Source of the DNA: Rhizodiscina lignyota | Taxonomy: Eukaryota | Direction: 5' to 3' | Assembly: GCA_010015805.1 (NCBI GenBank) | Contig: ML978128.1 | Location: 558,001 to 622,000, forward strand | DNA length: 64,000 nt | Translations under genes and position numbers: made by a program | Shown: positions 4,789 to 58,094 of the stretch, piece after piece | Numbering within the stretch: the first letter of the stretch is position 1 | Layout: each line of letters starts with the position of its first letter | Notes under the pieces: generated by a model | What the model was told of the DNA's origin: nothing | Database searches by the model: none | The model's input: only the letters and a program-made list of their open reading frames with translations

Positions 4789-6569
4789 ATGAGCGACAAT
4801 GGAGTCGTTTTAGGGCTTGAGGGTCGCGTGGGCCTGTCTGCTCACGAGGACGCAAGAGCTCTAGTTCGCCTGATACAATGCTCTCAATGCTCTCGACCGC
4901 TTCGAACGCCGGTCACACTTCCGTGTGGACACTCAGTGTGTCGCGACTGCTTGCCGCAACCACATCAGCGAGAGAACATTTCGTATCCGGATACGCCAGA
5001 CAGGCAGACGGGAGTTCGATGTCCAGTCCGATTATGTGAACAGGAGCATCCCGTGGGCGAAGTCAATGTCGATGTTACTTTGGCAAAGATTATGGAGCTG
5101 GTGTGCACGATGGTTGACAAGGCACGGACAAATGCGGAACTCTGTCCCACGCTGGTAACGGAGTTGCTTGCGAAAGATGATTTGCTCTCTGAGAAAGAAT
5201 CCGAAACAGAGAAAATGGATGAAGGGCGCTCGAATACTTTCTATGGTGGACGATTATTGTCTACCTTCACCATGGCCGAGTTAGGGGAACTCGACTTCCG
5301 CGCTGACGTACGATATGAAAGTCTCTCGGACAACGAGGATCAGTATCGACAATTGGACCTTGAATTGTTGGAAGAGATTCGGGAGACAACTCAAAAGGAG
5401 CTTGATTGTCAAATCTGCTACAATGCAATGCTCGATCCGGTCACCACTTCCTGCGGTCACACTTTCTGTCGGCGATGTCTCACGCGAGTTCTGGACCATT
5501 CAAGCTACTGCCCTGCCTGCCGCAGATCACTACCAATACCGCCGTCATTATCGCAGCAACAAAGCAACGAACGCATTAAGTCCCTGCTGAACAACCTTTG
5601 CCCAGAGACAATTGCGGCCCGCGCGGAAGCTGTGGCGCTTGAGGAAAGCAGCGGCATCGGCGAGCTCAATGTGTCCCTCTTCGTCTGCACATTATCTTTT
5701 CCTCAGATGCCTACGTTTCTTCATATCTTCGAGCCACGGTATCGACTGATGATTCGGCGAGCAGCTGAAAGCAATAGACAGTTTGGCATGCTCATGTACA
5801 ATAGATCCCGTACCTCTCAAGGCGATCTTGGGGTGACGGACTATTGCATGTACGGCACAATGCTTCATATACAGCATCTACAAATGCTACCTGATGGCAG
5901 AAGTATCATTGAGACACGTGGCTTGCACAGATTCAAGGTTTTAGAAACAGGGATGCGAGATGGATACATAGTGGGTCGCATTGAAAGAGTTGAGGATGTC
6001 AGCTTGGCGGAGGAAGAGAGACTTGAGGCGGAAGAAATACGAGTACACACGCAACCGCCTGATAGTCCCATGGAACCGGAATCAAACGAATCAAGCAATG
6101 GCAATGGGAGATCAAATAATAACAGGCCCGATGTCGATAGCCTGACCACGAGACAGTTGCTGGAAAGAGCAATGGACTTCATCGTCGAGATGAGGGGGAA
6201 CAGTGCTCCTTGGCTTCACCAACGCATTCTCGATGCCTACGGCGAGCCTCCAACGGACCCCGCAAACTTCCCCTACTGGTTTGCGAGCGTTCTTCCGATT
6301 GCTGATGAGCAGAAATATCTGCTCCTTACTACCACAAGCGTCAGACAAAGACTCAAGATTGTTGTAGGGTGGATTCGGAGGCTGGAGGACCAGAGATGGT
6401 GAGTCCTTCCTATTCAAGAGCACATTGTACCAAAATTGTTAGTATCTTTGACTAGCCTTTAAATGCACTGTTTCTCGATGTCATCATTTTCATTTGTTGG
6501 GGTATGATTGGGCTGATCAGAGTGCGTCTGGCTGACAGGTACTCTGCAAGCAATTGTACAGTTCTCTAA
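4789..6569 (+). CDS. LON peptidase N-terminal domain and double RING-finger protein (LONRF/CrgA-like putative E3 ligase)
   Basis: Two C3HC4 RINGs (CSQC..CGHSVCRDC..CPV; CQIC..CGHTFCRRC..CPAC) and a LON-N domain (FPQMPTFLHIFEPRYRLMIRR). Start at 4789 or 4711. Intron 6399-6538 (GTGAGT..GCTGACAG) leads to the last exon WYSASNCTVL*. Confidence 0.9.
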
Positions 6570-12303: not shown

Positions 12304-12795
12304 TCGGACTATGCCGGACTATTGCCCAGGAATGGACTGGAACTGGAAAAGGCTGTCTTACGTCGCCTCCTTGGCAAGATTTTAGAAGTCATTCGATTAC
12401 AGTGGAGCCGCTCTTCCATTATGCTCGAGCATTTCAGCGTGAGGGCTGAGACATGACAAGCGCTCTTTCAAAGGCCGGCTCTTATCCTTGGTATCCTGTG
12501 TTGTCGATGCTAGTCATTCGTCAAATGCCCCGCAGCATGTTGTGGAGCCTCTTGGAGTCCAACAAATAAGATCTACTCTTGGTGGAAGTGTAGCATACAG
12601 TTCGCAGCACGTGAGAATCCTAAAGGCGGTTTGCGATCAGAACACTTATAAGAATCCCTACAACTGACAGAAACCATTCTGTCGAGCTATTAGTATCCGG
12701 ATCACCGGCTGCTCCTAAAATCTTATGCACGGACAAGATTTGATGGCTTACAACGGTTTTTTCATGGCACGACGCCCCCCATCGGTGGCCTCCGC
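12304..12795. promoter_or_regulatory. Two CGG-N6-CCG sites (UaY/Ppr1-like) upstream of uricase
   Basis: TCGG-actatg-CCGG at 12304-12317 and TCGG-tggcct-CCGC at 12782-12795. The A. nidulans UaY consensus is TCGG-N6-CCGA. GATAAG/CTTATC (AreA-type) motifs occur at 12481 and 13041. Confidence 0.45.
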
Positions 12796-13254
12796 CGACA
12801 TGGGTGGATACTCCACCATCACAACGTCACGGCAAAGCACATGAGAGTAGGGCGGTAACCTAATTCCCCTCCAGCGGCAACGTTCTAGACGATACGGAGC
12901 GGCAAGATCACTCCGCCGCTGTTCATTTGCCGGATTGAAAAAAGGAATTGCACAAAGGCGGGAAGAGCTCAAGATCGTACTGCTTGGATTGTCTTGTGGC
13001 TTCGATTTGGCTCGACGGAGCTGCCCGACTGCTGATCCTTGATAAGGATCAGAGCTTTCTAGGGCGCCCAAGGCGTTGAGGAGATATAAGGACGGCTGCC
13101 CTTTGGATAGAGGACTTATTTCTTCTCATCAGAGTTCAATTGACTTTTGAAAAGCACTACTCGCATTTCAGTTGCCTCATCACTACCGCCGCTTCTCGAG
13201 CATCATCACCCACGAACGACGATAATTACTACTACCACCACCACCACAATCGCA

Positions 13255-14237
13255 ATGGCAGAACTTGGATACGCCCGCTATGGCAAGGACAACATCCGTC
13301 TGTACAAGGTCCACCGTGATCCTCAGGACCCGCGCAAGCAGTCTGTTGTGGAGATGACCATCTGTACTCTGCTCGAGGGCGACATTGATACATCGTAAGC
13401 ATTCCATCGTCCCATTTACCATGTTCGTGACCTAACTCGTACCCTCACAGGTACACCAAAGCCGACAACTCGGTCGTAGTGGCCACAGACACACAAAAGC
13501 AAACCTGCTACATCCTCGCAAAGCAACACCCCATCGACCCGCCCGAGCAGTTCGCGGCAATCATCGCAAACCACTTCGTCACCACCTACTCCCACATCCA
13601 CGCCGCACACGTCAAGATAATCCAGCACCGATGGACACGTCTGAGCGTGCAGGGCAAGCCGCACCCGTACAGCTTCTTCCGCGACGGCGAGGAGCTGCGC
13701 ACCGTCGAGTGCGTCGGGCGCGACAGCAAGCATCCGCAGGGCGCTGGATTCTCAATCAAGAGCGGCATCGACAAGCTGCTGGTGCTGAAGTCGACGGGCT
13801 CGGCGTTCTACGGCTTCCACCGCGACGAGTATACGCAGTTGCCCGAGACGTGGGACCGCATCCTGTCCACCGAAGTCGCTGCGACGTGGCAGTGGGCGCC
13901 GTTCGCGTCGCTTGCCGACGTCCAGGCTATCGCCCCGACGTTCAACAAGGCGCATGAGGAGGCGCGCACCATCACCCTCGAGACGTTCGCGACGGACGAG
14001 AGCGCGAGTGTGCAGAATACCATGTGGAAGATGAGCGAGCAGATCCTGGCGGCGGAGCCGAAGGTGGACTCCGTGGGCTATAGCCTGCCGAACAAACACT
14101 ACTTCGAGATTGACCTGAGCTGGCATAAGGGGCTGAAGAACACGGGCAAGGATGCGGAGGTGTATGCGCCGCAGAGCAATCCGAATGGGTTGATCCAGTG
14201 CACTGTGAACAGGAAGGGATTGAAGGCCAGACTTTGA
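13255..14237 (+). CDS. uaZ: Uricase (urate oxidase), peroxisomal
   Basis: ARYGKDNI, YTKADNSVVVATDTQK, LLVLKSTGSAF, SASVQNT and SLPNKHYF motifs. Intron 13395-13450. C-terminal PTS1 -ARL. Confidence 0.97.
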
Positions 14238-39717: not shown

Positions 39718-41419
39718 AATATGTCGCCTGAATACTCTATATGAAATGGATGTCAATGCATCATAACGGCGTCTTGGTCGCAATGTTCTTTTCAACAATA
39801 CCCTCGTCGCCGGGAAAATCGTATTGCTTTGTGGGGCTAGCGTTTAACACCGCGGCCCTTTATTTTTAATTTCTTGTCATCGGGTGCTCTGCATGGACCA
39901 GGTTCGAGATAAGATGAAGGTCGATCAACAGAAAGAGCGAATGCTGAATCTCACCAATGATTCCATGCTTTCGGAATCACACCTTGATTCATTTATCCGC
40001 AGCATGAAAGTGATCACGAGAAAAGGCTTTCCCCTTCTCTCAACCTAAGGCCGATTCTCTGATTAAATAATCCCATTCGCTGCTCTTGATTGGCTTACGG
40101 GTAACGGAGTTGCTCGCGTTAGAAGCGAGCCTGTATCGTGCCCTGTTCCTTGACGGACATCACCGTTTCCGAGACGGAATCGACTAGGTGCTGACGGTAG
40201 ACGAACAAGCCTTTTACCCCAGTCTCTCAACATAGCTAAATGTTACCACTTGCCTCCGTCGTGATCAGCCGAATCTGCCTGTTCGCTTGCCTTTCCCCTT
40301 CCTGGCCGAAGGAACGTTGGCATTTCAATCATCGGTTCATCACGAGTGAGGTGGAGAGGCTGCTTGCCGGCCCCGGCACGTCAGTGGCGTCCGGTACGGC
40401 GGTAGTGGCGCGCCTTCTCCACACTCCTCCGCGTGTCGTTCTGCCGTGCTAGCGAGCTTCCCTTTGTGCAGTTCGTCCTTTCTCCTTGTGTTCATCGCTC
40501 ACGGAGCTCTGTATACCCTTTCCTGGCCTCCCCTGTCTTCCTCTCGCTCTTGCCGGCTTCAGACCGAGCTTCAGCGAGTTGGTAATGGCGCGCTCCCCTC
40601 GATCGTCAGGCACGAGGACGGTTGCAAGGAAATTTCGGACGCGCCGGTGCAGAGCGAACGCCTAAAGAACCAAGAAGTCCGGACTGATGGTCCCGCATCG
40701 CGTTACCATGACCAACTCCTGCAGCCATGCCTGCTTCCCCGCAAAAAATACGACGTCGATGGGGATCAACTCTGCCATCGCGTCATGGCCTGGACGACTT
40801 TTTGCAGTTCGCGATGCAGGGTAGGTTACTCGAGGTCACGCTGCCTCTTAAGTCGTACCGCCCTTAAGCTTTTGCTTCTGGCGCTCTACGCGAGCTTCTG
40901 TTGTTGAATTTACGCTCAGTTACATTTCTATTCTGTCAATTCGCCCTGGAGTGGACGGCCAGCTGCAGTTTTGAATAGGCGTTACCTATTGCGGCACGCA
41001 ATTCACACATTCCAGCTGTCGTGAACCTTAGCTTGTCAGATTCCTGGGGTCAGATTCCGGCTTTAGCTAGAGAGTCAAACTGGTAAGTCGCGATTGGGAC
41101 TTGTCACTTATTTCAATCACGACGGTGAAGGTCCAGACCTTCAACTAACTCACGATCATCCACTCCTTTGGGACTTGTGCACGCGAGTCTCAATTGAGTC
41201 TCTTCACATGCGATATCTACTTATGTCTTATAATTTCTGGAAGCTCTTTAATGCAGTTCATGTATTTCTCGCTCTTGGTTTCTCAAACAAACATGCTGCT
41301 CTGGTTCGTTTGCTAATAAATTCGGTAGCGAGGAATCGGACCAGTTACACAGCTGACGAGACCCACTCGTCCCCGCAGACGTTGTGTTGACACGTGCGAC
41401 GTTAACCACCAGGACCAGA

Positions 41420-44400
41420 ATGCTGTCACCTAACGTCCTCCTCCGCATCAGCGTGATACCGCTGTGGTTGTCGTTGGTGTACGCAGAAACCTACAATACG
41501 CGCTTCAAGGATGTCACCTGGGATAACGAAAATTGGCGCATCACGAATACAGTGCTGGATCAGGGTCATTATCAATCGCGACTGAGTCTTGCAAATGGCT
41601 ACTTTGGGATTAATGTCGCAGCTGTGGGGCCATTCTTTGAGGTGGAGTCTCCAGTTTATGGGGACGACATAAGTGGGTGGCCAGTGTTCAACCGGAGGCA
41701 GACTTTTGCAACTATCAGCGGCTTTTGGGACTCTCAACCAACGGCGAACGGCGCGTCGAACGGTACGAACTTTGAATGGCTGAACCAATATGGCGGGGAG
41801 AGCATTATTGCAGGGGTACCGCACTGGGGAGGCTTGATTGTGGTGTCCAGTGGCGGATCTGTGCTGAATGCCACTGTACCGGCGGAGCAGATCTCGGGAT
41901 ACTCTTCAGTTCTGGATATCGGAGCGGGCGTACACAGCTGGCGATACACGTGGACTCCGGATGGGGAACCTGCTCTGGATATCGAGTACTCAATGTTTGT
42001 TCACAAACTCTATGTGAATCAAGCAGCCGTACAATTGACGATTACGCCATCGAGAGACGCCAATGTCACGGTCGTGGATGTTTTGAACGGAGATTGCGCA
42101 GTTAGGACAACGTTTGTCGACAAGCAATTCGAGAAGGATTCGGCCACAATCTGGAGTGCCGTGAAACCGCGTGGAATTGACAATGTGGAAGCGTACATCT
42201 ACTCCACTTTGGCTGGAGACTGCGAAATGTCAGATCGCAAGCAAGTTGTGGATGAGCCATATATCGGAGCCAACGAGTCCTCAATTGCGCAGTCTGTCCG
42301 GATTGACCTCACAGCCGGCCAGCCTTCGACAATCGAGAAGTATATTGGCGCGGCCTCATCGGATGCTTTCAAAAACCCGCAGCAGGTTGCTCGCAACGCC
42401 TCTGCCGCGGCAGCAAAAATGGGCATCAGCGCACTGCTTGAATCACACATTCGAGAATGGGATTCAACCATGAGCGAGGATTCTGTGGACGACTATTCTT
42501 TTCCAGAGAACGGCAGTCTACCCAACGACGCGAATATTGTTGAACTACAGATACTGTCGGTGACGAACCCTTTCCACCTCCTACAAAATACGGTTGGCCA
42601 AAACGCAATTGCGGCAGCCGGTGGTAACGAAAAGCTCAATATCAACAGCATCTCGGTCTGTGGGCTTGGCTCTGATTGCTATGCTGGTATGATCTTCTGG
42701 GATGCGGATGTGTGGATGGCGCCCGGTCTCGTTGTCTCTCATCCGGAAGCTGCGCAACAGATCACGAACTACCGGGTCGCTAAACATGCCCAAGCGAAGC
42801 AGAACGTCAAAGAGGCCTTCACGTCATCTCAGAATGAAACTGGAAAATTCACTGGCGGAGCGGTATTTCCATGGACGAGCGCTCGATTTGGCAACTGCAC
42901 CGGCACTGGGCCCTGCTTTGACTACGAGTATCATATTAACGGAGATATCGGTCTCCAGCTTTACAACTACTGGGTTGCGTCTGGCGATCAGGACCTTTGG
43001 AAAAACTCATTATTCCCGGTGTACGATGACATTGCGTATTTCTTTGCGGAGCTTCTGACATACGACAAGAAGACTGGGAAGTATAGCCTTACGAACGCTA
43101 CAGATCCTGTGAGTAAATCAAAACGTCTAGTCAAACATGTGCTCACAACAAGCAGGACGAATATGCGAATCATATCGATAACCCTGGGTTCACGATGCCA
43201 CTGATATACACTCATATTGAGAACGCGAACAACTTCCGTGTCCGTTTAGGTCTCCCAGCGAATAAGACCTGGGCTGAGATTGCTAAAAACATCAATATTC
43301 CTGTTTCTGAGTCTGCCGACATCATTCTCGAGTACTCGGGTATGAATGGCAGTATTCAGGTCAAGCAAGCCGACGTCCCGCTCGTGGACGATTTTCTGGA
43401 TTATCCCAACAACTTTACGCTATCAGATCTCGACTACTATGCAAGCAAGCAATCACCAAATGGCCCAGGTATGACATATGGTGTCTACAGCGTCGTGGCA
43501 AATGCTGCCAGTCCGAGTGGCTGCTCAGCGTACACATACGAGATCTACGGCAACGAGCCTTATGTTCGGGGACCTTGGTTCCAATACAGTGAACAGCTGA
43601 TCGACGATTTCACCACAAACGGTGGGACACATCCAGCTTTCCCATTCCTCACAGGAATGGGTGGCGCTAATCGTGTGGCCGTCATTGGGTATTTGGGATT
43701 CAAATTCATGCCAGATAGCTTCAACATCAATCCCCAGCTTCCGCCTCAGATCGAGAACTTGAAATTCCGAACGCTATATTGGCAAGGCCATGCCATCAAT
43801 GCTACCAGTAATCAAACTCATACGGTGCTGACTCGCCTCCCGAAGTCTCTCAAGAACGCCAACCCTGCTTATAATGACAAGCCGATCAATGTCACTTTTG
43901 GCGATGGCAGTAAGCCGATAAGTCTCCCACCTAACAAATCTATCACCATCGAGAACCGACGGCAGTCCTACAATCTTACCGTCCCGGGTAATCTGGCACA
44001 ATGCAAGCCTGCGTACTGTCCGCAGAGTTACGTTCCTGGACAGCTTCCAATCGCAGCAATCGACGGTGCGATATCGACTCCATGGCAGCCGAGCGACCCC
44101 AACAAGACTGCTTCTGTGACTGTCGATCTGACCTCTCAACCATTCCAACCCGTCACTGGCTTTTACTTCGATTGGGCACAAAATCCACCAAAGTCATATT
44201 CAATCAGTTTCTCGAACGCAAGTAGCATGGAAGCAGCCAATGCAGCTGCATCAGAAAAGGGTGCCGCAACTGTGAGCAGCAGTGCGCACATTAAAGTCAG
44301 CAGCCCGTACAACGCGTCGAACGCGGACGCGCTGGTACCATACAGTAGCAACTATACGAGCGTCACTTTGGATAAGCCGGTCTGGTCTGGAAAGTACGCA

Positions 44401-44556
44401 ACTCTGAGCGTTCTAGGGACTCAGGGAAGTGAGACAGATGTCGGAGGAACTGTCGCGGAGTGGGCCATTATCGGGAGCGGAGGGAAAGACTCGGCGAAAC
44501 GCGACGTGTACAGGCCAAGGAGATGGGCGCACGGGGTTGAGGACATACATGTATAA
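41420..44556 (+). CDS. treA: Acid trehalase, glycoside hydrolase family 65, secreted/cell wall
   Basis: Signal peptide, YQSRLSLANGYFG, YAGMIFWDADVWM, DYEYHINGDI, TDP|DEYANH, VKQADV and GGTHPAFPFLTGMGG. Intron 43109-43155; probable 5'UTR intron starting at 41083. Confidence 0.95.
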
Positions 44557-44747: not shown

Positions 44748-45195
44748 TCAAGCATTTCCCAACTCTCCCGGATGGGTATGTGTCTGGGGTCCCAATCCGG
44801 TGTGTGTCTGTGGGCCAAGTCCGGAGTTTGTCTGTGGTCCCAATCCAGTGTTTGTCTGTGCCGCCAATCCGGTGTCTCCGGTTTCTCCTTGCAGCGTTCT
44901 GTTCACTTTTTCCTCCGCCGTATCCGCTGGCGTGACTCCTGCGCCTGTACCGTGATACCTTCCAGTCTCCATCTCATCGATGCCGCGTGCGGCAATGTTG
45001 TGGTTCTTGCTGTGTGGTTTATCGGTGCCAGTTACGGAATCCGCAAAGGAGTTGATGTCGCCGCGAATGGTTTCGCCCGCACCCTGTATTAATGTATGTT
45101 AGAAGAGCTAATAAGTGAGGAATGAGAGGACATACGTGAACCACACCCCAAGCCTTCTTAATCGCATCACCGGCCTTCTCGCCTGTGTTCGACAT
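44748..45195 (-). CDS. Small hydrophilic Gly/Thr-rich protein (about 131 aa) with C-terminal 8-aa repeats
   Basis: Exon 1 (45195-45136) encodes MSNTGEKAGDAIKKAWGVVH. After canonical intron 45135-45084, GAGETIRGDINSFAD... runs in frame into ORF 44748-44972. Confidence 0.8.
44780..44875 (-). repeat. 24-bp coding tandem repeat x4 (TGLGPQT[HN])
   Basis: Plus-strand units at 44780, 44804, 44828 and 44852 (consensus (g/t)tgtctgtggtcccaatccggtgt). Confidence 0.9.
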
Positions 45196-45999: not shown

Positions 46000-46632
46000 A
46001 TGGGCGCCGTTCGACAATTCCAGCTGTCTACGCCGCGGAAGAAGCGGGATATCGGTCGTGCTCCTACTGTCCAGTTAGCTGATCCTGTTTTCAACCAGCC
46101 GCTGTACACAGTTGAGCGGCATGGGGATTCCGAGGTAGCAATGGTCTACAAAGTCGAAATGAGAGACGGTCAATCCGAGGTTCTGAAAGACGATGTGGCG
46201 AAGGGCGAGTGCGTCGGCGCCGTGAAGGCGGCCGAAGCGCTTGGCGGCAGCACGCAGTTCATGTTCGGGAACCCAGACCGCGACCTGGACACACAGTGGA
46301 CGCAAGTGACGAAACAGTCCAGATTTACGAGGATAAACGACTTTGTTGTACGAATTCCGGATCCCGTGGGCAAGCCCGCAGAATTGCACTGGAAGCATAC
46401 GAAAGATGTTGGAGGACTTCTCCAGCGTCTTGATACCTTGAACATGAAGCTTGTAGACGAGTCTTCCGGAGATATCGTTGCACGCTTCGTCCACAAACCG
46501 TCGATTTGGGTCATGGAAGGCGTTTTCGAGATGCATGAGGACTTGGGCGAGGAGTGGGACTTGCAAGTGTTCCTGTCCTGTCTTGCCGTGCTGAAATATA
46601 ATGGCTTATTCTTCAATTTGAATGTGTTGTAA
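46000..46632 (+). CDS. Hypothetical protein, beta-rich fungal family (possibly DUF6593 or tubby/LURP-like)
   Basis: Intronless 210-aa ORF with good start context (ACAATGG), a WKHT..MKLVDE..IVARF pattern and a terminal hydrophobic helix. Confidence 0.7.
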   Translation: MGAVRQFQLSTPRKKRDIGRAPTVQLADPVFNQPLYTVERHGDSEVAMVYKVEMRDGQSEVLKDDVAKGECVGAVKAAEALGGSTQFMFGNPDRDLDTQWTQVTKQSRFTRINDFVVRIPDPVGKPAELHWKHTKDVGGLLQRLDTLNMKLVDESSGDIVARFVHKPSIWVMEGVFEMHEDLGEEWDLQVFLSCLAVLKYNGLFFNLNVL

Positions 46633-46880: not shown

Positions 46881-48629
46881 TCATCTCTCGGCCGACCATG
46901 CAATGAGCGCAGCGCCAACGCCGCTGCCATCTTTCGCTAGCCCTATTCTTACCCTCCTTTCGCCATGACGACCAATCTCAGGGATATCGCGGAGCGCAAG
47001 TCGGAGGTACTCTTCAAAGTTGGGAAACAGCTCAAACAGCGACCCATCGACACCAATATCGATCACCTCTTCTGCTGGAATAGTGTCTTCGTCGCTAATT
47101 GGTTCCCATCCGCTTTTGCCAACCGCGGCAGCAGTCGCATTTCGCTTTGATAACCACGAAATTCCGATTGCGGAGCAGGCATGGGTCATCGCTTGCCCGA
47201 AACGACGCCTCAGCGCTCGGTAAAGGGGGAAGAGAAGACCAAATATCGTCCACTGCGGCTTTGAAGAAGCCTTGACGTTGGAGACAGGCTGAAGTCGCCC
47301 GGATTGTATCAAAATTCCCGCAATTGCAATTGCCGACAACCTAGCAGCTCGACGTCCTATTGCAATAGAAAGAATCCGAACGGCCATGGCATCCTGAACA
47401 GAAACATTTATTACGCCCAGAATTCTTGAAATGACTTCTTTTGCGATATCAAGTCCAGGACTAGCATCGCTTGCAACGAAGGAGAGTAATGAACTATCGA
47501 TCGAGTCCGACACGAATAAAATCGATTCTGGAGGCACCTTCATGTCCAAGGCCGGGGGCTTTTGTGCCAGTAGAAGCAGTAGGATCCGCCGAAGTAATTC
47601 TCCGAGATACATTCCGGATATTTGTTTCTCGAAAAGCTGCTCTCCTGGGTTCACAGACTCTCTATCAAGCGATGCGTCATATATCGTAGAAGGCACAGCA
47701 ACTAGTTTATCATCAAATCCGCCCCATTCAGTGTTGAGGATCATCATATCGTCTGGTTTATACGACGCAAACTCGGGCCGATTAAGGAGCTTCGCGATAT
47801 TTGCCATTCGTTCGACGTAAGCGCCGTTCGTGCCTGTACCAAAGATTGCGCCTGCCAGAGTGCCTGATGTTCCAGGGGCAGTGTACGACCTCGCAACAAG
47901 GGTCCCAACCGTGTCGTTCGTCAGCGCAGTGACCACAAGAGGAAGATTCAGCTCGTCCATCGCCTCTTGGAGCATGGCACAAGGGTCGCGGCCAATGGCA
48001 TCCGGGATATCGAATGACTTCGTCCAGTACAGCACAGTCCCCTCGTCGAGAGCATGTTGATCAAAAGTAAAGCTGAAAGTGAATCCTAACCTTCGAAAAT
48101 GCCTCAGTCTGTATTCTTTCGTTAGAGGTGTATCCTTTGCGATTCGACTCCAAGCATCCAGATCTTCTTGGTGATCTTTCTCCATAAACGCCCTGACTTG
48201 AACAGCGATAAATCGGAATAAGTCTTTGTACGATGTACCGGTCATGAGATTTCGTGGAATTGCCGTTTTAGATTGAGTGAGTGAATAAGTTGAATCCCCA
48301 TGAAGTCTGACGGAACAGACTCGCAGATTTGTGCCACCAAGGTCGACGGCAAGACATACGCCTGTCTCCGTGCCATTAGGAAGATTCGTTACATATGAGG
48401 GGATCTGGCACATCGGCGCACCGTCCCGTTTCAAGCCGTCATCTGTTTGGATGTGTTATCGATCTTTGCGGGTTGAAGCAGGGAGGTGAGAATCCAACTC
48501 ACTGAGTTGTTTGACAAAGTATCTGGTAGCCTCCCCGATATTATCTCTCGATACCTCAAACTCTTCGGCTATCCGCTTGACCTGTGAAATCACGCCCCCG
48601 CACTCTTGCTCAGAAGAATAGAGCGACAT
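46881..48629 (-). CDS. Hexokinase-family sugar kinase, divergent glucokinase (GlkA/Glk1-like) paralogue; candidate glucosamine kinase
   Basis: LAVDLGGTNLRVCS, LGFTFSF, NDTVGTL, IFGTGTNGAY, NTEWGGFD, FEKQISGMYLGE, IGVDGS and KDGSGVGAALIA. Exon 1 is 48629-48503, intron 48502-48443. Confidence 0.92.
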
Positions 48630-49058
48630 CATAACTTAATTATCGAAAATTCCCACTCTTATCATGCCGAGGTGAGCCCATGGCGATGGAGGTGGCTTGC
48701 AAATATCCATAGAAGCTGAATACCAAAATGCTTACTAGTCCAAAGAAGATTCTTCTGTGATTCCCATCACATTGCTGTTTTTTCTATACAACATTAACCA
48801 AATTCAGCCAAAGGCCGATACAACCGGTGTTTGCCGGTGTGGAGAAGTTCGTGTTGGGATATGTTGAGATTTCCCCACTTATTCCCACAGCTATCACTAT
48901 GCTCGTCCTTCTCCATTATGGAGAGCACTTGGCCGGCTATGGACTTGAACCATGAGGTTTGTCCGAAGTGTTGATAGCCTCGAAGACAAAATGTGACATA
49001 TCGACGACATGAGACACGGCACATACGGTGAACTCTGGCCGGGCAGCGCATAATCAAC

Positions 49059-51144
49059 ATGTCGGAGGAGCAACACCATGAACGGGCGGACGAGCATGCA
49101 AGCTCCACAGTCCAAGCTCCAGGGGACCGAAATAATGAGTTGAAGGCGCGAAAAGCTTGTAGTAGGGCTCTATCTCGCCGCCTCTCAGGTCATTAGCTGA
49201 CATAATCAAGTCAACTGTAGGAGACAGAAGGTTCGCCAGCCTGCCAGGCCACGTGTGGAAGCTGAAAGATCTGTATGTGCGATACTGACCGTCTCTCTTC
49301 ATCAGATGAAATGTAGGATCGATCATGGTGCATCTTGTCGACGGTGTTTGCGTGCTGGAGTACCATGTATCTTTGTACCTCGAGCAAATGCAAGTAGTGT
49401 CAAGCTCTTGAACGTCCTACTACTCGAGATGCTAACTTTCCTGACTAGGCTGCTTCTCACCACGAGCAGTATATCTTTCCCACGGAGCTTAATGCGGATG
49501 TACTACCTTCAGAACGCACCAATTCGATGCTTAACCGCCTTCAGAGGATCGAAGAGTATCTTGGGTTCGTGAATTCCGAAGGAGATGGCTCTCCAAGTAC
49601 GATGGAACCTACGAGAGGGGAAATCGATAGCCCAGGACAGGAGTCCCTCGGCACCTTATGGTCTGCAATCGCTGTTCTGAAGCGAACATGCGCCAACGAG
49701 GTTGACCCGAAGGCCTGGCAAAGGGATACGATAAAACAATTGTGGCTCACGTACAACCCCCCGTAAAACAAACCCGACGAGGCTGGAAATACTAACACAG
49801 TAACAGCTTCCATGACTCCATGCCTGGACTCCATTTCCTCACCAACAAGCAAACATTCTCATCCCCAAAGCCCCTCTTACTAGCGTCCATGCTCTACTGC
49901 TCAAGTCTACGAGGAGCTGCGGAAGTAGCTGTTCTCGAGCCGGAGTATTTCAAGGTGCTCTGCAACTCTATTTCGCGACTGTGCATCCCAGGCAGTGAGA
50001 TTGGCCAAATTCCAGAGGACCCTGCTCTGGCCGAAGAATGGGCTTTTCAGACGATACTGGGAATCATACTTGCAGGTCTGCTAAAAGAAGCCGCTGTCAA
50101 AGAGACGGGGATCTGGATTCCAATTGGTTATCGACTAATCCTCGAATATTCTCCACCGAATACGGATGAAAGATCTCGTGAATGGCAGCGGCTCTTTGCT
50201 GGGCTTCAGGTAGGTTGTGAAGCCTTTTCTACCTGACCACAATACTAACTAAACGTTCAGATTGTCGATTTGGAACATGCCTCGCTCCACTTATCTTGCC
50301 CCATCATCCCTGTCGAGGCACCACTACCCCGACTTCAACTTCCTATGCGAGGCCAGCTGTATAGGTTATCTCGTATGATGCATACCGGTCTCACCCATTT
50401 TACAGGCCGGGGACTACCGACGATTTGGTCTTGCTTTTCAGATGCACCCTTACGTATAGTTGAGTCTGCGACCACCTTCAGCGGAGTCGATGCGGCTGTG
50501 ATCCGAGACTGGGCTCGTCAACTTGACGAGTGGTTGGTAGAATTCAGCAGCCAGGTGTATGAATCCGAACACGAGAAGAAACTTGTCTTTCGACAGTACA
50601 TATTGCACAGACTTTTAGTCCTCTCCATATACCATCCTGCGCGAGGATGCAACCTCTTTTCAAACTCCGCATCTCCAAAAGAGCAATATGAGCTCCTGCT
50701 TTCTGCGCGGGCTGCTATCAAGCTACATCGAGATGACTTCTCGATTTGGTCGAATTGGGACCTTGTGATGATCACATGGGCTGCACTTATTGTACTTCAA
50801 GGCGTTCAAGGGGGCGTTGGCGATCCTGATGGTTAGTGAACATCACACTGGGCTGAGTTGCAGGCTTGCAGCCAATATAAATTTGCTAACGATATATCAC
50901 AGACTTGGAAAACGTCGATGTCCACCTGAAAATGCTAAGGCGCACAAACGAACCCAAACCGGGCCTCCGCGAGAAGCTGGCTTGGCGTCTGGAGCAGAGC
51001 CTCGAGGGCCTTCATTCGCCGCTCGCTGGAGAGGCCGCGCTTGCCGGACAAGATGTCATCGACAGCTCCTGGTATATCTTCGACGAAGGCAGCTTGCAAA
51101 ATGCTGGATATCAGCTATGGCCGTACGATAACCAGATACAGTGA
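49059..51144 (+). CDS. Zn(II)2Cys6 transcription factor (7 exons)
   Basis: Splicing 49059-49161 / 49211-49230 / 49306-49389 restores KACINCRRQKMKCRIDHGASCRRCLRAGVPC. Further exons 49449-49750, 49807-50209, 50261-50831 and 50903-51144 are all in frame. Confidence 0.9.
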
Positions 51145-51369
51145 CGCAGCAGCTGGTCGTGGAACGGCTGTCCACCATACCGCAATGCGAGAGACGGTTA
51201 GGTAGCAACATGATCGGGTTTCACTCAATATTTTGATTATGCTAATGTAAAGTAGAATGGTTCCATCGCGCCTTCATCTCGAATACCCATATCTTTTCCA
51301 TATTCTTTGCGGAATTCAGAACCCCGCAAAGATGTAGCAACAAATGAGAACTGTCAATGCTCTCCTTCG

Positions 51370-52606
51370 TTATTGTTCCGGCAATGCAAGACGAGAGGAC
51401 ATACTGTCAGGTGTAAGATCGGCGCAGCATTCTTCGTCTCTTGACACTCTTTTTGCTTTAGAGTCTGGTGTCTGGGGCGGAGTGGCGAGAGACCACGTTC
51501 GCAATCTCAAAGGAAGTTTCTGTTCAAAACCTCGTCCCATTGCGACCTCTTCGATGCTCTTAAAATACTTTGGTTGCATACAGTTAGTAAAATTCTAACG
51601 TCTAGCTTGATCTCTACCTGATCCGCATTTCCAAGAGACAACAGGAGAGAATGGCTTACCTTTACAGTTTTGACTTGCATTTCCAGTGTAGCATCCTCAT
51701 CTACCACGATCATCGAGTAGGAGTGAAGCTGAAGGCACGATAATGTACACATATGGCTGACGCCTCCTTCTACGGCTCGCTGTAGAGCGAGTGCCTTCGC
51801 CGTACCCGTGACGATGATGACCACTTCCTTTGCCTAGCCTTCCAATCAGCGGCATGATATACCTGCGCCTCCACGAACGATACTCACTTCCATGATCGTC
51901 TGTACCCCTACAGTTAATGCCATCTGTGGGACTTGGAGCATATCTCCATCGAAGAAGCGCGCATTAGCTCGGACGGTATCCATCGCCAGGGTCTTAACTC
52001 TTGTCCGCGACGCAAGGCTCGATCCAGGCTCATTGAATGCAATATGTCCGTCTGTACCTACGCCGCCTAGGAACAAGTCGATGCCCCCAACACTCTTGAT
52101 CTTCGCCTCATACATAGCGCATTCTTCCTCGAGGTCCAATGCGTTACCATTGAGGATATTGACATTATCGGGGTTGATATCCACCTGAGAAAAGAAGTTC
52201 CGGAACATAAAGCTATGGTACGACTCTGGATGCTCTTGAGGCAGACCGACATATTCATCCTTGAATTCAATCGTGTTACTCTTGTGCCGACTGGAGATGG
52301 AGATGGTTGCTAACCATGTTGAACGTTATGACATTTTTGAAAGATATCCTCCCCGCTTTGTGCTCCGCTACAAGAATTCTGTAAATTTCAAGCGGACTAC
52401 TTCCTGTTGGGAGTCCGAGGACGAATGGATTCTCAAGCGTCGGCTGGAAATTCCGAATGCGGTCTGTCGAGGGAGATTAAATCGCCTTATTAATACGAAC
52501 TTCTCTTCTCTTATTGAGATATAAAGGCAAAGTGTAATTTACCTATAATGTAGTGTGCAACATATGCCGAGGTGGAGTCAGGCTTTGCTCGTATGATGAG
52601 TCTCAT
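51370..52606 (-). CDS. NAG1: Glucosamine-6-phosphate deaminase (NagB/Nag1/Dam1 family)
   Basis: MRLIIR..|[86 protein letters not shown]. Four introns. Confidence 0.96.
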
Positions 52607-53291
52607 TCTGCAATGAATGCAAAACAATTGATATAGAACACCGCGGGCACGAATTGGACAAATTTTCGAACAGGTATAAACGAGTCTCCGGAGAATTTAC
52701 TGCTCACAAATATTCATGAATAAACTCTGCAATTATTCAACTATTCACATTCTAAAACAAACCCGGCAAACCGGCAATGTTCACCGGGGCTTCAAAAACC
52801 CACAAAAAAAGCATATTACTTCCAAAAAATCCCCCGATACCCAGCTTCACTTGCGCGGAGCGTTGACCATATTAAGACATTGCGGAGAGTTGTTGCGTGG
52901 ATATGATTGTCGCTGAATGCTGATGATTGGCAGCAGCTGCGGCGTGGTGATTTGTTGCGTATTGCGTGTCTCTCAAATTGAGACCAAAATGTTGCATTAG
53001 TCCAATGTCAGAGCTTGAGAAAACGAATTTCATCATTTGCAGATAGATTCTTTTGATTTCCTATAGTACAAGGAGAAGCGTTAACCTTATTTGGCCACGA
53101 CATATTGCGACCGCGGATGTGATCCCGAACTAGCCAGAGCATCCACGCGTAGCAGCCCTTCCAAGGGCTAGACTTCCACAGATCCAGGCTTATCCTTACA
53201 TCCACAAGCCTTGAGTTGGACCCGGTCCGAAGTGATCGGTGCTGTAGCGATAGTCCCATACACTCAGCCGCGCCAGCAGCTAGAGTGCTCA

Positions 53292-55642
53292 CTAAATCGG
53301 CAAACTCCATCCCATCGCAGCCCAGTTCAACTGATTCAAATCGAAGTCGAATGGAGCCTGTCCGGGTATGTGAGGATATACTCCCGGTGCTGTTCCTGCG
53401 TAGCCGCCTACGCCTCCCATGCCAAACAATAGGCTTTGATTGCCAAAGTCCGTAGGCATCGACATGGGAAAGTCGGCAGATCCCATGCCCATAACACTGT
53501 TTAATTGATCCGTGTCAGCAGTGTTTTGCGCTGCTTTCGTTACCTTTTCTCTGATGCGTGACACCATCTTTGGTGGGTTCAACGGCTCTCCTGATTGTGT
53601 GGACGCTGCCTCGTGAGCCTCCCAGGCTCGGAGGACAAGGCTGCTCATAATATTGTGGAAAGGGCCATCGCTTATGTCTAGGTCGAAGACGAATCGAGCC
53701 TCGTAGTTGTCGCTCATAAGTCGCCAACATTGCTCAGCTTGCTCACTGAGAGGTCGCCTTTTCAGGTCTTGAATGATGTGGATGTATGCAGGAAATGGGA
53801 AATAGAAGTGAGCCAGCCAAAGGTATCCTTTCGTGAGTGGTGAGGTCATGATCTTCGTATCGCACTCAAGCATGCTGAGCGCGTATGAAATGGCATCCTC
53901 AAGCTGTGCTTCAGTCTGATGCGCAGATGACTTTGAATATCTGGAATAGTGTTCCACGAGGCGGCATTTAGCAAGGTATCCCCTCGTCATCCAGATCGTC
54001 ATGAAGTGGAGGGGGCTATCTGGGTCACAGAACTGGAGATATTTGTCCTCGATCATCTTCTCCAGAGCGACCAGCTCACCGCCCTCTAGATCGTGAGCGT
54101 GCTGAACACCCTTGGCAAAAGCCTTCAAAGCGGGATTGGCAAAATCAAGATGGAACCGGGTATGGCGGACAAACTCCCCCAGTTCACTGCGCACCGCGAC
54201 GAAAAGTGCCTCAGTGGACCTCTCTTGGACCGCTGGTGGCTCTTTCATCTCTGGTCGAAGGTCCGAGTCATTCACGTTGAGAGGAATCTTGCAATCCCAG
54301 AGAGGAGCTAGCATTGCGGTTTTGCAGATGGCGAGCTCGCCGATGCGAGTGTCGAAGAGTGTGAGCGACCACCAAAGTCGTCGGCGCATTTCGGCTTCAA
54401 GAACGCTGCATTTGGCACAGGCCGACTCGCTGTGAATGCCCATGCGTTGCGCAATGCGAAGTGCGATGCCAAGCATGGAAGATAAGGCTCGAGGATCTGT
54501 GCCTGATCTGACCGAGACCTAATATAGTTGGCAAGTATGTAGATAACGACATGACGGACTTACCAAGTAAAGATATAATGCGGTCAAGCAATCGCGATCG
54601 CTAGACCGCAAAAATCCGCAGTTCAACAGAGCTTGCTGACAGCCGAATTGGTATCTCGGCAAAAGATCCCCACTCGACGAACCAAACATGGACTGGGAGT
54701 CCTGTGGGGTAAGACTTTGAAGTGACATGCAGTAGATGCTGAACATGAGCGCTTCCAGGTTGGGGCTGACTTTTGTTATGTCGCTGGCGGCTTCTATGAT
54801 GCGTCCTTGCAGGCTGGGAGTGTGCGTGACCTTGAGTAGTGGGTCGACATTGTCTAGGTACATCTGCCAAAGCCTGAAGATCTGGACAGGCTCCGGGTGT
54901 AGAGTAGAGAGGTCGACATTCGTCTTGCGTGACCCAAACAGGAGGTGGTCATTATCTTCAAATAATTGATCATACAATTTCCTCACCACAACTTCACGGA
55001 CATCATCTTCTGAAGATTCGCTGTCGTTATCGGCGCCTCGTGGCTTGTCAATTGTCAGTAGAGCTCAAATCACATATGTCTTAAATCATACCTTATGATT
55101 CATGGCGTGCCATAAGTTCCTGAGAACATTAGTCATCTTGCGACAGCTTCTTGGAGAGTGCATACTTGGATTTATGTGCTCTCCTAGGCTTAACGATTGT
55201 CGAGTGAGATGAGCTACCTGGCCCCTCTACTTCTTGTTGCTCATCATCGGAATCATTGCCGCTCTGCGCATTGGGAGACTCCTTCTCTCCAACTTGATCC
55301 TTGTGGAGCGGTTCAAATTTGATATTGTTCTGGCGGAGCAGCTCCTCGTACTTATGAAGACGTTCCAGCAGCTCTCGCTCAGGAAACCGACGTCTTCGCC
55401 GGCGCGGGTTCAACGTCGCAGGCACACATTGCGCCCCAGATTTGATGCAGTTTGCGCAAGGAAACTTGCGACTAAATTACGTGGAGCAAATTAGCGTAAC
55501 TGACTTAATGCTTGCACCACAGGATAACGTACTCACACCTCACCTTGCGCTGCTGACAAAGAACACATGCAAGGACCCGCTGCGGTTTCGAAAGTTTTGA
55601 GGACGAGTCTGGAGTAGGCGCTGGTGTGGGCACTGTCGACAT
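53292..55642 (-). CDS. Zn(II)2Cys6 transcription factor with a fungal-specific TF (middle homology) domain
   Basis: Spliced CVLCQQRKVRCDRKFPCANCIKSGAQC (intron 55532-55472), LHPEPVQIFRLWQMYLDNVDP, GIALRIAQRMGIH..EMRRRLWWSL and PLNVNDSDL. Confidence 0.92.
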
Positions 55643-55990
55643 GACTGCAGTACTCTCGGCGAGGCGCCGAAGCTACAGCGATACTCAAACAAGAGGCGAA
55701 CGTGTGCACAGTTTTGGAAATTCAAGAATGAGAAGACAGCTAGATAGAAACAGGTAGCCCCATTAGGCAACAGCCGCACCAGAAGTAGGATGATAGACGC
55801 GTCGTCGAGGAAGGGATCGCACAGTTTCGACTCAGGCGTATCGGAACGTCAGCGCGTCAGAAACGCAGCGGAAAGCCAATTGAAACTCTGCAAGGCTGAT
55901 ATGCGGCTCAAACCATCGCAGGGGTAGGTGTAGCCTAGGCCTTCATTGATCGCACGAGTTGTAACAGATGAGGTGACCGTACAGTACTAC

Positions 55991-56073
55991 TCGGGTATTT
56001 GAAGCGCCCGAAATTTGGATGGAGGCGAGCATCACGTGAGCGTCTTTTCTCCTCGGGGGTTTCTAAAGTCCGA
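55991..56073. promoter_or_regulatory. Two TCGG-N13-CCGA inverted repeats, candidate Zn2Cys6 binding sites
   Basis: TCGG-gtatttgaagcgc-CCGA (55991-56011) and TCGG-gggtttctaaagt-CCGA (56053-56073) in the divergent promoter of the TF and the MFS gene. Confidence 0.6.
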
Positions 56074-56247
56074 CAAGCACTGAAACTTCCTCGTCACTCG
56101 GCCTCCTGAGCGATACCATGGTCTAAATCTAGCGGTTGTTTAGCGGAATTGCTTCAAAAAGTGTCCGGAATGAAGAGGTATGTAAATCATAGCCTGTCCA
56201 ACATCTCCTGGCCGGAGAATTCTTAACTTGAAGTGCATTGAGTAACC

Positions 56248-58094
56248 ATGTCTACCACAGCTTCTGTACAATCCGCCAACAAGGCACCGGCAGCAGAGGC
56301 GTCTCAACAAGTCGACGAAGTCAACGAATATGAAGATGCCGAAAAGAATTTCCGGCCAAAGTCCCTGAAGTTTTGGACAATTCTCTGTGGCATGTACTTG
56401 TCGATTTTCCTTGTTGCATTGGTAAGTCCGCTGCACTTCGATCACCAACCAACGCCAGACCTAACAATTCAATAGGATCGGACGATCATCGCGACCGCCA
56501 TTCCAAGGATCACCGACGAATTCAATTCAATCGAGGATATCGGCTGGTATGGCAGTGCATACATGCTGACTGGCGCCTGCTTTAATCCGGTCTTCGGCCG
56601 CATCTACAAGCTCTACTCGACAAAATGGGCATTTCTTATTTCGATTGTCATCTTCGAGGCAGGTTCGGCTCTCTGTGGTGCCGCTCCAAACTCTACTTCC
56701 TTCATTGTTGGACGTGCCATCGCCGGGTTGGGATCTGCCGGCATCTTCTCAGGCGGATCAATGCTCATACTTCCACTCGTTCCTCTTCGCAAACGCCCCG
56801 TTTTCACCTCCATATTCGGTATGATTTTCGCTGTTTCCTCAGTTCTTGGACCTATAGTTGGCGGCACGTTTACTGACAAGGTGTAAGTCTCTGATTTACC
56901 TGGTAACCTTGTGTGCTGACTCTTTGCAGGACGTGGAGATGGTGTTTTTATATCAACTTGCCGATTGGTGGCTTTACGCTTCTTGCCATCTTTCTATTTG
57001 TTCACATCGAATCACCCGAGCGCGAGAAGCTCACGGTCTTCGGCCAGATCAAGCTTCTTGATCCCATCGGAATTCTGTGCTTCTTCCCATCCATGGTGTG
57101 CCTCATCCTCGCTCTTCAATGGGGAGGGACCATCTATCCCTGGTCGGCACCAAAGATCATCGGCCTTCTTGTCACCTTTGCCGTCCTATTCATCATTTTC
57201 ATCATCGTAGAAGTCTTAACACCAGAGACTGCCATGGCCCCAACTCGAGTTGTCCTAAACCGTTCCATTGCTGGTAGCATGGCTTTCATATTCCTGCTTA
57301 TCGGAGGCATGATGGGCGTGGTCTACTATTTGACGATCTGGTTTCAAGCGGCGAAAGGTGACTCAGCCATGCACTCTGGTATAAACTTGATACCCACCAT
57401 TCTGGCAATGGTCGTCACGAGCATCTTCGGCGCCATAGTCACACAGAAGATTGGATACTATGCCCCGGCTATGCTGCTTTGCCCAGTGGTGTGCTCAGTT
57501 GGCGGGGGTCTACTCTCGACACTCTCGGCGAGCTCAGGCCACAGCTATTGGATCGGCTACCAGGTTCTTTACGGCCTCGGCATTGGAATTGGCTTCCAGA
57601 ATGCCAACTTGGCCGCCCAGACCGTGTTACCGCGCACTGATGTCTCTCTCGGTCTGGCCCTGGTGATGTTTTCACAGCAGCTTGGCGGTTCCGTCTTCCT
57701 TTCTGTCGGTCAAAATATCTTCTCGAGCAAGCTTGTGGACAGCCTCACTGGGGTTGCGGGCCTCGATGCAGAAGGTCTTGTCAACACGGGTGCGACCGAT
57801 CTTCGTAGGATTGTGCCGCCAAGTGAGCTCAATACTGCTGTCAACGCGTACAGCTACGCGTTGACCAGAGTCTTCATTCTGACAGCAATCCTCAGCGCCT
57901 GCGCAGTTCCGGCCGCTTTGGCCGTTGAGTGGAAGAGCATCAAGAGCAAGAAAGGCGCTGGAGGTACCTCGAAGGCTGCCGAAGCCAAGGCAGAAGAAGG
58001 CGAGCGCAAGAGCCAGAGTGCCTCTGAGACTGGTACACATGGTGCCTCCACTGTAGAGATGCCGCCGAGCGAGGATAGGGAGAAGGAGCTGTGA
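56248..58094 (+). CDS. MFS drug:H+ antiporter, DHA2 (14-TM) family; toxin/metabolite efflux pump
   Basis: [60 protein letters not shown] and [13 protein letters not shown]. Introns 56422-56475 and ~56883-56929. Confidence 0.95.

Follow-up and report, generated by a model that had tools for sequence, protein, structure and literature searches.

A predicted glucosamine-utilisation module of a GlkA-like kinase, a Zn2Cys6 regulator and a NagB-type deaminase in Rhizodiscina lignyota

Three adjacent genes and their products

Our analysis of a 64-kb window of the Rhizodiscina lignyota genome (contig ML978128.1; "the window" throughout means this whole stretch of DNA) concerns three adjacent genes encoding a GlkA-like hexokinase-family kinase, a Zn2Cys6 transcription factor (TF) and a NagB-type glucosamine-6-phosphate (GlcN-6-P) deaminase. 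The window is fungal, with intron-containing genes, and the trio lies in the order kinase, regulator, deaminase (Table 1). Kinase and TF start from divergent ATGs 426 bp apart, and the stop codons of TF and deaminase converge at a distance of 225 bp. An earlier note, made from the sequence alone, had located these genes in the same arrangement and had interpreted them as a possible separate regulon for the utilisation of D-glucosamine (GlcN). All three genes were found where it had placed them, with the divergent and convergent geometry it described, and comparative sequence analysis supports its interpretation. Three of the checks it had proposed, on the kinase phylogeny, on a second deaminase and on co-conservation of the trio, gave the outcomes expected under its reading.

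Table 1. Coordinates of the trio and of associated features in the window
Feature	Position	Strand	Remarks
GlkA-like hexokinase-family kinase gene	46881..48632	-	two exons: 5' exon ~48510-48632, large exon with stop codon at 46881
In-frame ~160-nt stretch in the kinase insert, an intron in the public model	47094..47255 (approximate, from residue numbers)	-	frame open
Kinase/TF divergent promoter region	48633..49058		426 bp, between the gene starts
Candidate Zn2Cys6 element CCGATACAACCGGTGTTTGCCGG	48815..48837	+	three CCG/CGG half-sites including one TTTGCCGG; minus-strand CGG-N6-CGG from 48815
Zn2Cys6 transcription factor gene	49059..51144	+	several short introns; zinc-cluster codons ~49158-49368 over three exons
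NagB-type glucosamine-6-phosphate deaminase gene, group A, cluster-linked paralogue	51370..52606	-	five exons; from high-scoring segment pairs (HSPs) of P0242
Candidate element CCGGTTTGCCGG, in tandem TTGCCGG-TTTGCCGG	52763..52774	-	~160 bp upstream of the deaminase ATG

The large open reading frame (ORF) of the kinase (46881-48413, minus strand) is preceded by an exon that shifts the ATG to 48632/48629, in agreement with the tblastn span (48629-46884) of the annotated protein "hexokinase [Rhizodiscina lignyota]" (P0001). It contains the motifs that the earlier note had quoted (PSYVT..PNGTE, LHGDSTYSLTQSK and AKDGSGVGAALIA) and matches the Pfam families Hexokinase_1 (1.3e-58) and Hexokinase_2 (4.6e-67). 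P0001 itself scores 226 and 229 bits against PF00349 and PF03727, with cut-offs of ~24, so both hexokinase domains are present. The sequences FTFSF, WTK, NDTVGT, GTGTN, TEWG and FEK were all located in P0001 and align with human HK1; we take them to comprise the serine loop (FTFSF), the catalytic aspartate (in NDTVGT) and the sugar-binding motifs of the kinase. The ORF and P0001 are identical at 466 of 522 aligned positions, 53 being gapped in one stretch, which the public model splices out as an intron. These 53 residues, which hold the hydrophobic run WTIFGLLFPLY..., align with a coding stretch of equal length in a 560-aa Colletotrichum homologue (P0002). Because the frame is open and the residues have this coding counterpart, the intron call is probably wrong and the stretch coding.

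The resident regulator is a Zn2Cys6 protein whose public model (P0121) is partial. It begins at VNCRRQK and lacks the exon with the first zinc-cluster cysteine; its tblastn HSPs lie at 49210-49398, 49449-49757, 49805-50830 and 50902-51141, with 99% identity over the largest TF exon. An upstream exon at 49059-49230 on the plus strand, MSEEQ...KARKAC, supplies the first cysteine and matches the N-terminus of the Colletotrichum graminicola protein P0126. Read from the DNA, the zinc cluster (...KARKAC / INCRRQK / MKCRIDHGASCRRCLRAGVPC) is the full CX2CX6CX7CX2CX6C, split by two short introns. The Zn_clus family (PF00172) matches the partial P0121 with 23 bits and P0126 with 29 bits. Both the domain match and the complete six-cysteine pattern thus agree with the class of regulator that had been named for this locus. 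The TF is highly conserved, and identities of 65-80% in its largest exon extend over Colletotrichum, Aspergillus, Talaromyces, Nectriaceae, Xylariales and some Dothideomycetes.

The deaminase (P0242) matches PF01182 (6.4e-23, 82 bits, cut-off 27), and its residues 1-260 align with residues 1-260 of Escherichia coli NagB (1cd5; 355 bits), which upholds its earlier identification as a GlcN-6-P deaminase through full-length colinearity. D72, D141, H143, E148 and K208 (E. coli numbering), presumably the catalytic residues of NagB, are identical in P0242. Unchanged as well are S151, R158, K160 and Y254, which we assume to form the allosteric site of NagB for N-acetylglucosamine-6-phosphate (GlcNAc-6-P). 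The absence from the window of a deacetylase and of an Ndt80-type regulator, already remarked on in the earlier note, agrees with a Pfam scan of the 214 stop-to-stop ORFs of at least 90 aa in the window: no deacetylase/amidohydrolase or NDT80 (PF05224) match was obtained at E<=1e-3, a scan that genes made only of shorter exons could escape.

Descent, co-conservation and shared promoter element

The best 120 of 5,577 significant matches to the kinase are all glucokinase-like. Among them, the closest relatives after R. lignyota itself are Colletotrichum proteins of ~560 aa with 56-61% identity, followed by proteins of Plectosphaerella, Verticillium, Emericellopsis, Stachybotrys and Magnaporthaceae (50-56%), and the "glucokinases" of the Dothideomycetes, the window's own class, reach just 45-50%. 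A FastTree phylogeny of 125 rows, made up of these 120 relatives and five kinases from metagenome loci, contains a 60-row canonical clade (support 99) that tracks the species tree and includes not one cluster-linked row (0 of 60); all 28 cluster-linked rows fall outside it. For a rooted tree (IQ-TREE quick search, LG+G4), 66 rows were chosen from ~270, with seven hexokinases as root, one of which, P0434, is essentially yeast Hxk2. Here the canonical glucokinases of the Pezizomycotina form a clade of 18 rows (SH-aLRT 99) with the window kinase outside, and a sister clade of 39 rows (SH-aLRT 86) takes in the window kinase and all linked kinases save that of locus L030. Within this sister clade the window kinase and 12 Sordariomycete rows form a clade (SH-aLRT 99). 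The Dothideomycete GlkA rows, among the canonical ones, make up a subclade of their own without the window kinase. By its predicted descent, the window kinase is a GlkA-type paralogue distinct from the housekeeping GlkA, in keeping with the glucokinase-paralogue assignment that had been made from its motifs.

The catalytic and sugar-binding motifs are intact across this kinase clade, which has long branches in both trees and is fast-evolving. It carries an extra insert of ~80 residues before the last conserved block. The residue after FTFSF is proline in 60 of 60 canonical rows, threonine in 48 of 50 rows of the window clade, and alanine or threonine in the 10 other non-canonical rows; this exchange of Pro for Thr/Ala after the serine loop is the only fixed change near the sugar pocket.

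R. lignyota has two deaminases: P0242, on a contig of 1,870,748 bp like the kinase and TF, and a second, canonical-type protein, P0286 (351 aa), on a contig of 1,995,651 bp. In a FastTree phylogeny of 128 rows, from which the mollusc protein P0241 was left out, group B (76 rows, support 96) agrees with the species tree, and P0286 is placed in it beside Aulographum. Group A (49 rows, support 80) has 29 of the 32 linked rows, including that of the window, which is sister to a 37-row Sordariomycete clade of proteins of ~317 aa (support 96 and 98). Colletotrichum also carries a group B copy (P0331). The tree indicates that in R. lignyota and its closest relatives the cluster deaminase is a separate paralogue, and by sequence both groups appear to be ordinary GlcN-6-P deaminases; a signature of changed specificity in group A, which we considered, found no support, the sole fixed difference between the groups being A171 against S171. 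Because a second, canonical-type deaminase exists, a canonical N-acetylglucosamine (GlcNAc) cluster appears to lie elsewhere in the R. lignyota genome.

The closest relatives of all three proteins are found in the same taxa, among them Colletotrichum, Verticillium and Plectosphaerella. In named genomes, two proteins were taken to share a contig when the sizes of their listed longest contigs were equal, a proxy that for Mb-sized contigs says little about adjacency. By this proxy, kinase, TF and deaminase occur on the same contig in five further species (Colletotrichum falcatum (65,930), C. sublineola (64,120), C. truncatum, Plectosphaerella plurivora and Stachybotrys elegans), and pairs do so in others: kinase and deaminase in 13, kinase and TF in four, TF and deaminase in four, including two Talaromyces. 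Locus tags are near-adjacent for the deaminase and kinase of C. fioriniae (COL5a_000165 and COL5a_000167) and for the TF and kinase of Emericellopsis cladophorae (J7T54_002717 and J7T54_002718).

Synteny was followed directly in 34 metagenome loci encoding relatives of the TF, in which kinase and deaminase were sought by tblastn and loci at least 99% identical were merged. The deaminase lies directly downstream of the TF, in convergent orientation, in 10 of the 14 lineages whose contigs continue for at least 500 bp beyond the TF. The kinase lies upstream of the TF in 6 of the 8 lineages in which 1,300 bp or more precede the TF, divergently in L006, L008 and L023 and co-directionally in L014, L026 and L030; a fragment is also present in L029. 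A Sugar_tr transporter, Hxt-like by its automatic label, flanks the trio in L006, L008 and L030, with mutual identities of 59-96%. The contents of five long related loci (L001, L006, L008, L020 and L030) were scanned against Pfam with 111 of their 197 ORFs of at least 110 aa, those overlapped by longer ones being left out, and these 111 ORFs gave no match to amidohydrolase, NDT80 or GH3. The trio thus recurs in named genomes and on metagenome contigs, as the earlier note's reading of it as a unit implied, and does so, in the five loci scanned, without the deacetylase, Ndt80-type regulator or GH3 enzyme. Five other neighbours in the window were compared with the 34 loci (the MFS gene at 56.5-58.1 kb, which is of the TRI12/drug-efflux type, a second Fungal_trans TF, a GH65 gene and two unknown ORFs), and none has a homologue there. 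All five were therefore rejected as cluster members, and the conserved unit is exactly the trio. Rejected too, as a cluster transporter, was the Sugar_tr gene of the window at 29.2-31.0 kb, with 28-34% identity to the cluster-linked transporters.

In L001 an amino-acid permease of the AA_permease_2 family (3996-5547, minus strand) adjoins the TF-linked deaminase, in place of a sugar transporter. L030 and L026 encode a more distant TF (36-39% identical to that of the window) with the same kinase/TF/deaminase content. The TF homologues of L020 (and L019, L021 and L022) and of L027/L028 are 38-50% identical to the window TF and have no kinase or deaminase within 6.5-10 kb, which suggests paralogous TFs or loss of the cluster in these lineages. 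Horizontal gene transfer of the whole trio from Sordariomycetes was also considered; the trees show no transfer, the window kinase and deaminase being sister to Sordariomycete clades and not nested in them, and patchy retention would fit the trees equally well.

When 18 cluster promoter intervals were scanned for pairs of CGG/CCG at every spacing from 0 to 15, CGG-N6-CGG was the conspicuous one, seen 23 times over 10 of the intervals. These sites resolve to CCGG-N5-CCGG, often as tandem TTTGCCGG. An example, gTTTGCCGGnTTTGCCGG, lies between kinase and TF in L006, L008 and L023 and ahead of the kinase in L014, and CCGG-N5-CCGG is found upstream of the deaminase in L006, L008 and L030. The pattern CCGGN{0,2}TTTGCCGG has exactly two matches in the 64-kb window (48824-48837 and 52763-52774), one per cluster promoter, with 0.02 expected. 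Non-redundant loci totalling 146 kb contain 10 CCGG-N4-6-CCGG sites, 8 of them in cluster promoters, which account for 10.9% of this sequence (binomial P ~7e-7, a post hoc value for an element derived from these same promoters, with the independence of the counts limited by the relatedness of the L006, L008 and L023 lineages); in the window the cluster promoters, 1.3% of the sequence, hold 2 of 4 such sites.

Direct CGG repeats are a known type of Zn2Cys6 site, of which the Hap1-type CGG-N6-CGG is one. The element described here resembles it in that CCGG-N5-CCGG contains CGG-N6-CGG on both strands, and differs in its half-site context TTTGCCGG, which is specific to this cluster, and in the N4 and N6 spacings of the window. 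The TF would act through these candidate CCGG elements, and the putative element shared by the promoters supports a common regulon. By our own overall estimate, it is highly probable that the three genes form a genuine functional module under common regulation.

Matches of the same type occur at a few other places. Two in the window, CCGGATCACCGG at 12697-12708 and TTTGCCGG at 12926-12933, both lie within ~750 bp upstream of a uricase gene (13431-14234, plus strand) and may represent the site of another Zn2Cys6 protein (purine regulon) or chance. One further CCGG-type match of the window lies at 44869, and in L020 a CCGG-N4-CCGG is found ~875 bp upstream of the TF.

Substrate of the module and rival explanations

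What does the module act on? On balance, and with modest confidence, we favour a self-contained, pathway-specific hexosamine catabolic module, most likely for free D-glucosamine derived from chitosan or deacetylated chitin. The GlkA-like kinase paralogue would convert imported GlcN to GlcN-6-P, and the NagB-type deaminase paralogue would convert the latter to fructose-6-phosphate and ammonium. Through TTTGCCGG / CCGG-N4-6-CCGG, the Zn2Cys6 factor would activate the deaminase promoter and the one shared by kinase and TF, and it would thereby be autoregulated. In several other fungi the Hxt-like transporter of the cluster probably imports the sugar. The module would operate separately from the canonical GlcNAc cluster (Hxk3/Nag5, Dac1, Dam1, Ngt1, Nag3 and Ron1). 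We infer from these comparisons that free GlcN is the substrate, that flux runs in the catabolic direction, that the TF binds the element and that GlcN or chitosan induces the genes.

Work in other fungi is consistent with such a two-step route. In one study, a kinase and a deaminase are reported to suffice for growth of engineered yeast on GlcN, Saccharomyces cerevisiae needing only an added deaminase, YlNAG1 (PMC6240059). In Aspergillus fumigatus growing on GlcN, NagA is required and DacA dispensable (PMC12584764). In Pochonia chlamydosporia, a transcriptome study places a "glucokinase" (RZR61856.1; log2 6.5-8.3) among the genes most strongly induced by chitosan (PMC8518118). Chitosan also induces a GH75 chitosanase gene (RZR61845.1) and the gene of an MFS transporter (RZR61846.1) in that study (PMC8518118). 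Their accession numbers differ from that of the kinase by 10-11, which suggests a chitosan-utilisation neighbourhood. P. chlamydosporia also has a homologue of the window TF (P0236). A published quantitative PCR primer for this Pochonia "glucokinase", translated as ALIIQS, was examined as well; "IIQS" occurs in 12 of the compared kinases and in none of the canonical ones, and was judged too weak to serve as evidence.

A number of observations weigh against the proposed glucosamine role or loosen its fit to the trio. For the kinase/TF/deaminase clade as a whole, the assignment to GlcN is a prediction from sequence, and the Pochonia kinase is a candidate member of the window clade. The sugar-contact motifs of the kinase all match those of ordinary glucokinases, and nothing in them positively favours GlcN over glucose; the two deaminase groups, likewise, are set apart by the single fixed position given above. 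Ordinary hexokinases already phosphorylate GlcN. A. fumigatus is reported to grow on GlcN with a single canonical deaminase (PMC12584764). On these two grounds a dedicated GlcN module is not obligatory. R. lignyota has no sugar transporter linked to the trio in the window, and no CCGG-type site was found upstream of the transporters that are linked elsewhere. The promoter statistics are, as stated, post hoc, and the window has spacings of N6 and N4 as against N5 in most loci.

The phylogenetic and syntenic evidence has its own weak points. The sister clade that holds the window kinase has an SH-aLRT value (86) below the star threshold, and the rooted tree does not settle the position of the L030 kinase. 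In L030 and L026 the linked deaminase belongs to canonical group B, that of L030 next to Paraphoma; for this reason the association between TF family and deaminase may predate or cross the deaminase duplication. The deaminase is absent in 4 of the 14 lineages (L013, L016, the L020 group and the L027/28 group) and the kinase in 2 of 8 (the L020 group and L028), and the same-contig counts in named genomes carry the limits of their proxy.

An unlikely, though the best surviving, alternative is that the module is co-regulated but handles another substrate that feeds into GlcN-6-P, either GlcNAc or another N-acyl-hexosamine, with Dac1 encoded elsewhere, or mannosamine or a related amino sugar. Synteny and a shared motif point to a module and not to its substrate, the deaminase, a NagB of the standard kind, retains the residues we take to bind GlcNAc-6-P, and in L001 the neighbour is an amino-acid permease with no sugar transporter there. 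Against this, no deacetylase was found in the window or in the five long loci, the kinase is of glucokinase descent and not from a lineage annotated as GlcNAc kinase, and R. lignyota retains a second, canonical-type deaminase. The linked transporters are, moreover, of the hexose type, unlike Ngt1, which belongs to the MFS_1 type.

It is also conceivable, if improbable, that the kinase paralogue acts chiefly in sensing or regulation and modulates the neighbouring TF, so that catabolism in the module would fall to the deaminase alone. Models would be the hexokinase-like, non-catalytic proteins of Aspergillus and the moonlighting Nag5 reported for Yarrowia (PMC8658026). The fast evolution and long branches of the kinase clade, its insert of ~80 residues and the fixed substitutions beside the sugar loop could be read in this way, but every catalytic and sugar-binding motif is preserved throughout the clade, and a sensory role would itself be compatible with catalysis.

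Less probable still is an anabolic or homeostatic direction, in which the deaminase would form GlcN-6-P from fructose-6-phosphate and ammonium, or buffer GlcN-6-P, and the kinase would supply hexose phosphate for the cell wall. The NagB reaction is reversible, and the near-identity of group A and group B deaminases means that sequence fixes no direction. A Zn2Cys6 factor together with an Hxt-like importer is, however, the usual layout of a catabolic nutrient-utilisation cluster, and fungi make GlcN-6-P with Gfa1.

Chance adjacency of a housekeeping glucokinase and an ordinary deaminase around an unrelated regulator, to which the gene density of fungal genomes and the fact that three neighbours in one genome prove nothing would lend some credence, is essentially excluded by the recurrence of the same families (TF with deaminase in 10 of 14 lineages, TF with kinase in 6 of 8, and many named genomes) with no other neighbour shared, and by the non-canonical descent of both kinase and deaminase.

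Relation to known systems and neighbouring genes

The fungal GlcNAc cluster is the closest described counterpart, known as HXK1/NAG5-DAC1-NAG1 in Candida albicans and as hxk3-dac1-dam1-ngt1-nag3-ron1 in Trichoderma reesei (Kappel et al. 2016, PMC4950302). Both systems have clustered amino-sugar genes with a hexokinase-family kinase, a NagB-type deaminase ending in fructose-6-phosphate and an in-cluster regulator. Unlike that cluster, the trio comes without a Dac1 deacetylase or an Ndt80-type regulator in the window and in the five long loci, where a GH3 nag3 was likewise not found; its regulator is a Zn2Cys6 protein, its kinase is of glucokinase descent, its deaminase is a separate paralogue, and its linked transporter, where present, is Sugar_tr/Hxt-like. 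In their account of the GlcNAc cluster, Kappel et al. describe no Zn2Cys6 gene or glucokinase paralogue (PMC4950302). In its proposed working the module resembles the fungal GlcNAc cluster, without belonging to it. The defining deacetylase and Ndt80-type regulator were looked for in the window and the five long loci and are absent, and kinase and regulator are of other descent.

The use of GlcN through generic kinases, as in S. cerevisiae with YlNAG1 (PMC6240059) and in the A. fumigatus dacA/nagA mutants (PMC12584764), follows the same two-step, deacetylase-independent chemistry as is proposed here. There, a housekeeping hexokinase is combined with the deaminase of the GlcNAc pathway; here, dedicated paralogues are clustered with a regulator of their own. 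With GlkA/Glk1 (6p4x/6pdt) the window kinase shares the fold family and the catalytic and sugar-binding motifs, yeast Glk1 (6p4x, 290 bits) being its best-scoring single-domain relative of solved structure, ahead of Hxk2 (1ig8, 245 bits). It differs in lying outside the GlkA clade, in the Thr/Ala in place of the invariant proline after FTFSF and in the insert of ~80 residues.

No published description of a fungal GlcN-specific kinase/deaminase/Zn2Cys6 cluster was found in the full-text literature, subscription-only papers lying outside the scope of this search; the earlier note, too, had known of no characterised example. We put forward, tentatively and with somewhat less than even confidence, that the Pezizomycotina possess an anciently duplicated GlcN/chitosan regulon that consists of a GlkA-derived GlcN kinase, a second NagB, often an Hxt-like importer and an autoregulating Zn2Cys6 activator acting on tandem TTTGCCGG. 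Such a regulon would run parallel to and independently of the Ndt80/Ron1 GlcNAc cluster and would have been kept patchily, notably in plant-, nematode- or insect-associated lineages. It would also explain the chitosan-induced "glucokinase" of Pochonia.

What would be the relevance of such a module? Fungal, insect and nematode material is rich in chitosan and partly deacetylated chitin, and chitosan also serves as an antifungal agent and in plant protection. The uptake and regulation of GlcN in filamentous fungi have until now been accounted for only through the GlcNAc pathway, as one of its side-branches. If the proposal is correct, the TF and its element would be the first pathway-specific regulator and candidate binding site for glucosamine use. 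The widespread "second glucokinase" and "second deaminase" genes, automatically annotated as housekeeping, would gain a function, and differences in chitosan tolerance among fungi would have a possible reason. The module may also be considered an example of a primary-metabolism cluster born from duplicated housekeeping genes.

On either side of the trio lie genes that are not part of the conserved unit. A GH65 (acid-trehalase-like) gene with a C-terminal F5/8 type C domain (41357-44553, plus strand) ends ~2.3 kb from the 3' end of the kinase, separated from it by a 210-aa ORF (46000-46632) that matches no Pfam family; neither is conserved beside the trio in other loci. Beyond the deaminase, a Fungal_trans-type regulator (53295-54518 and upstream, minus strand) is divergent from the TRI12/DHA-type MFS efflux transporter gene (56476-58091, plus strand), and the pair (53295-58091) looks like a separate unit of a regulator and an efflux pump.

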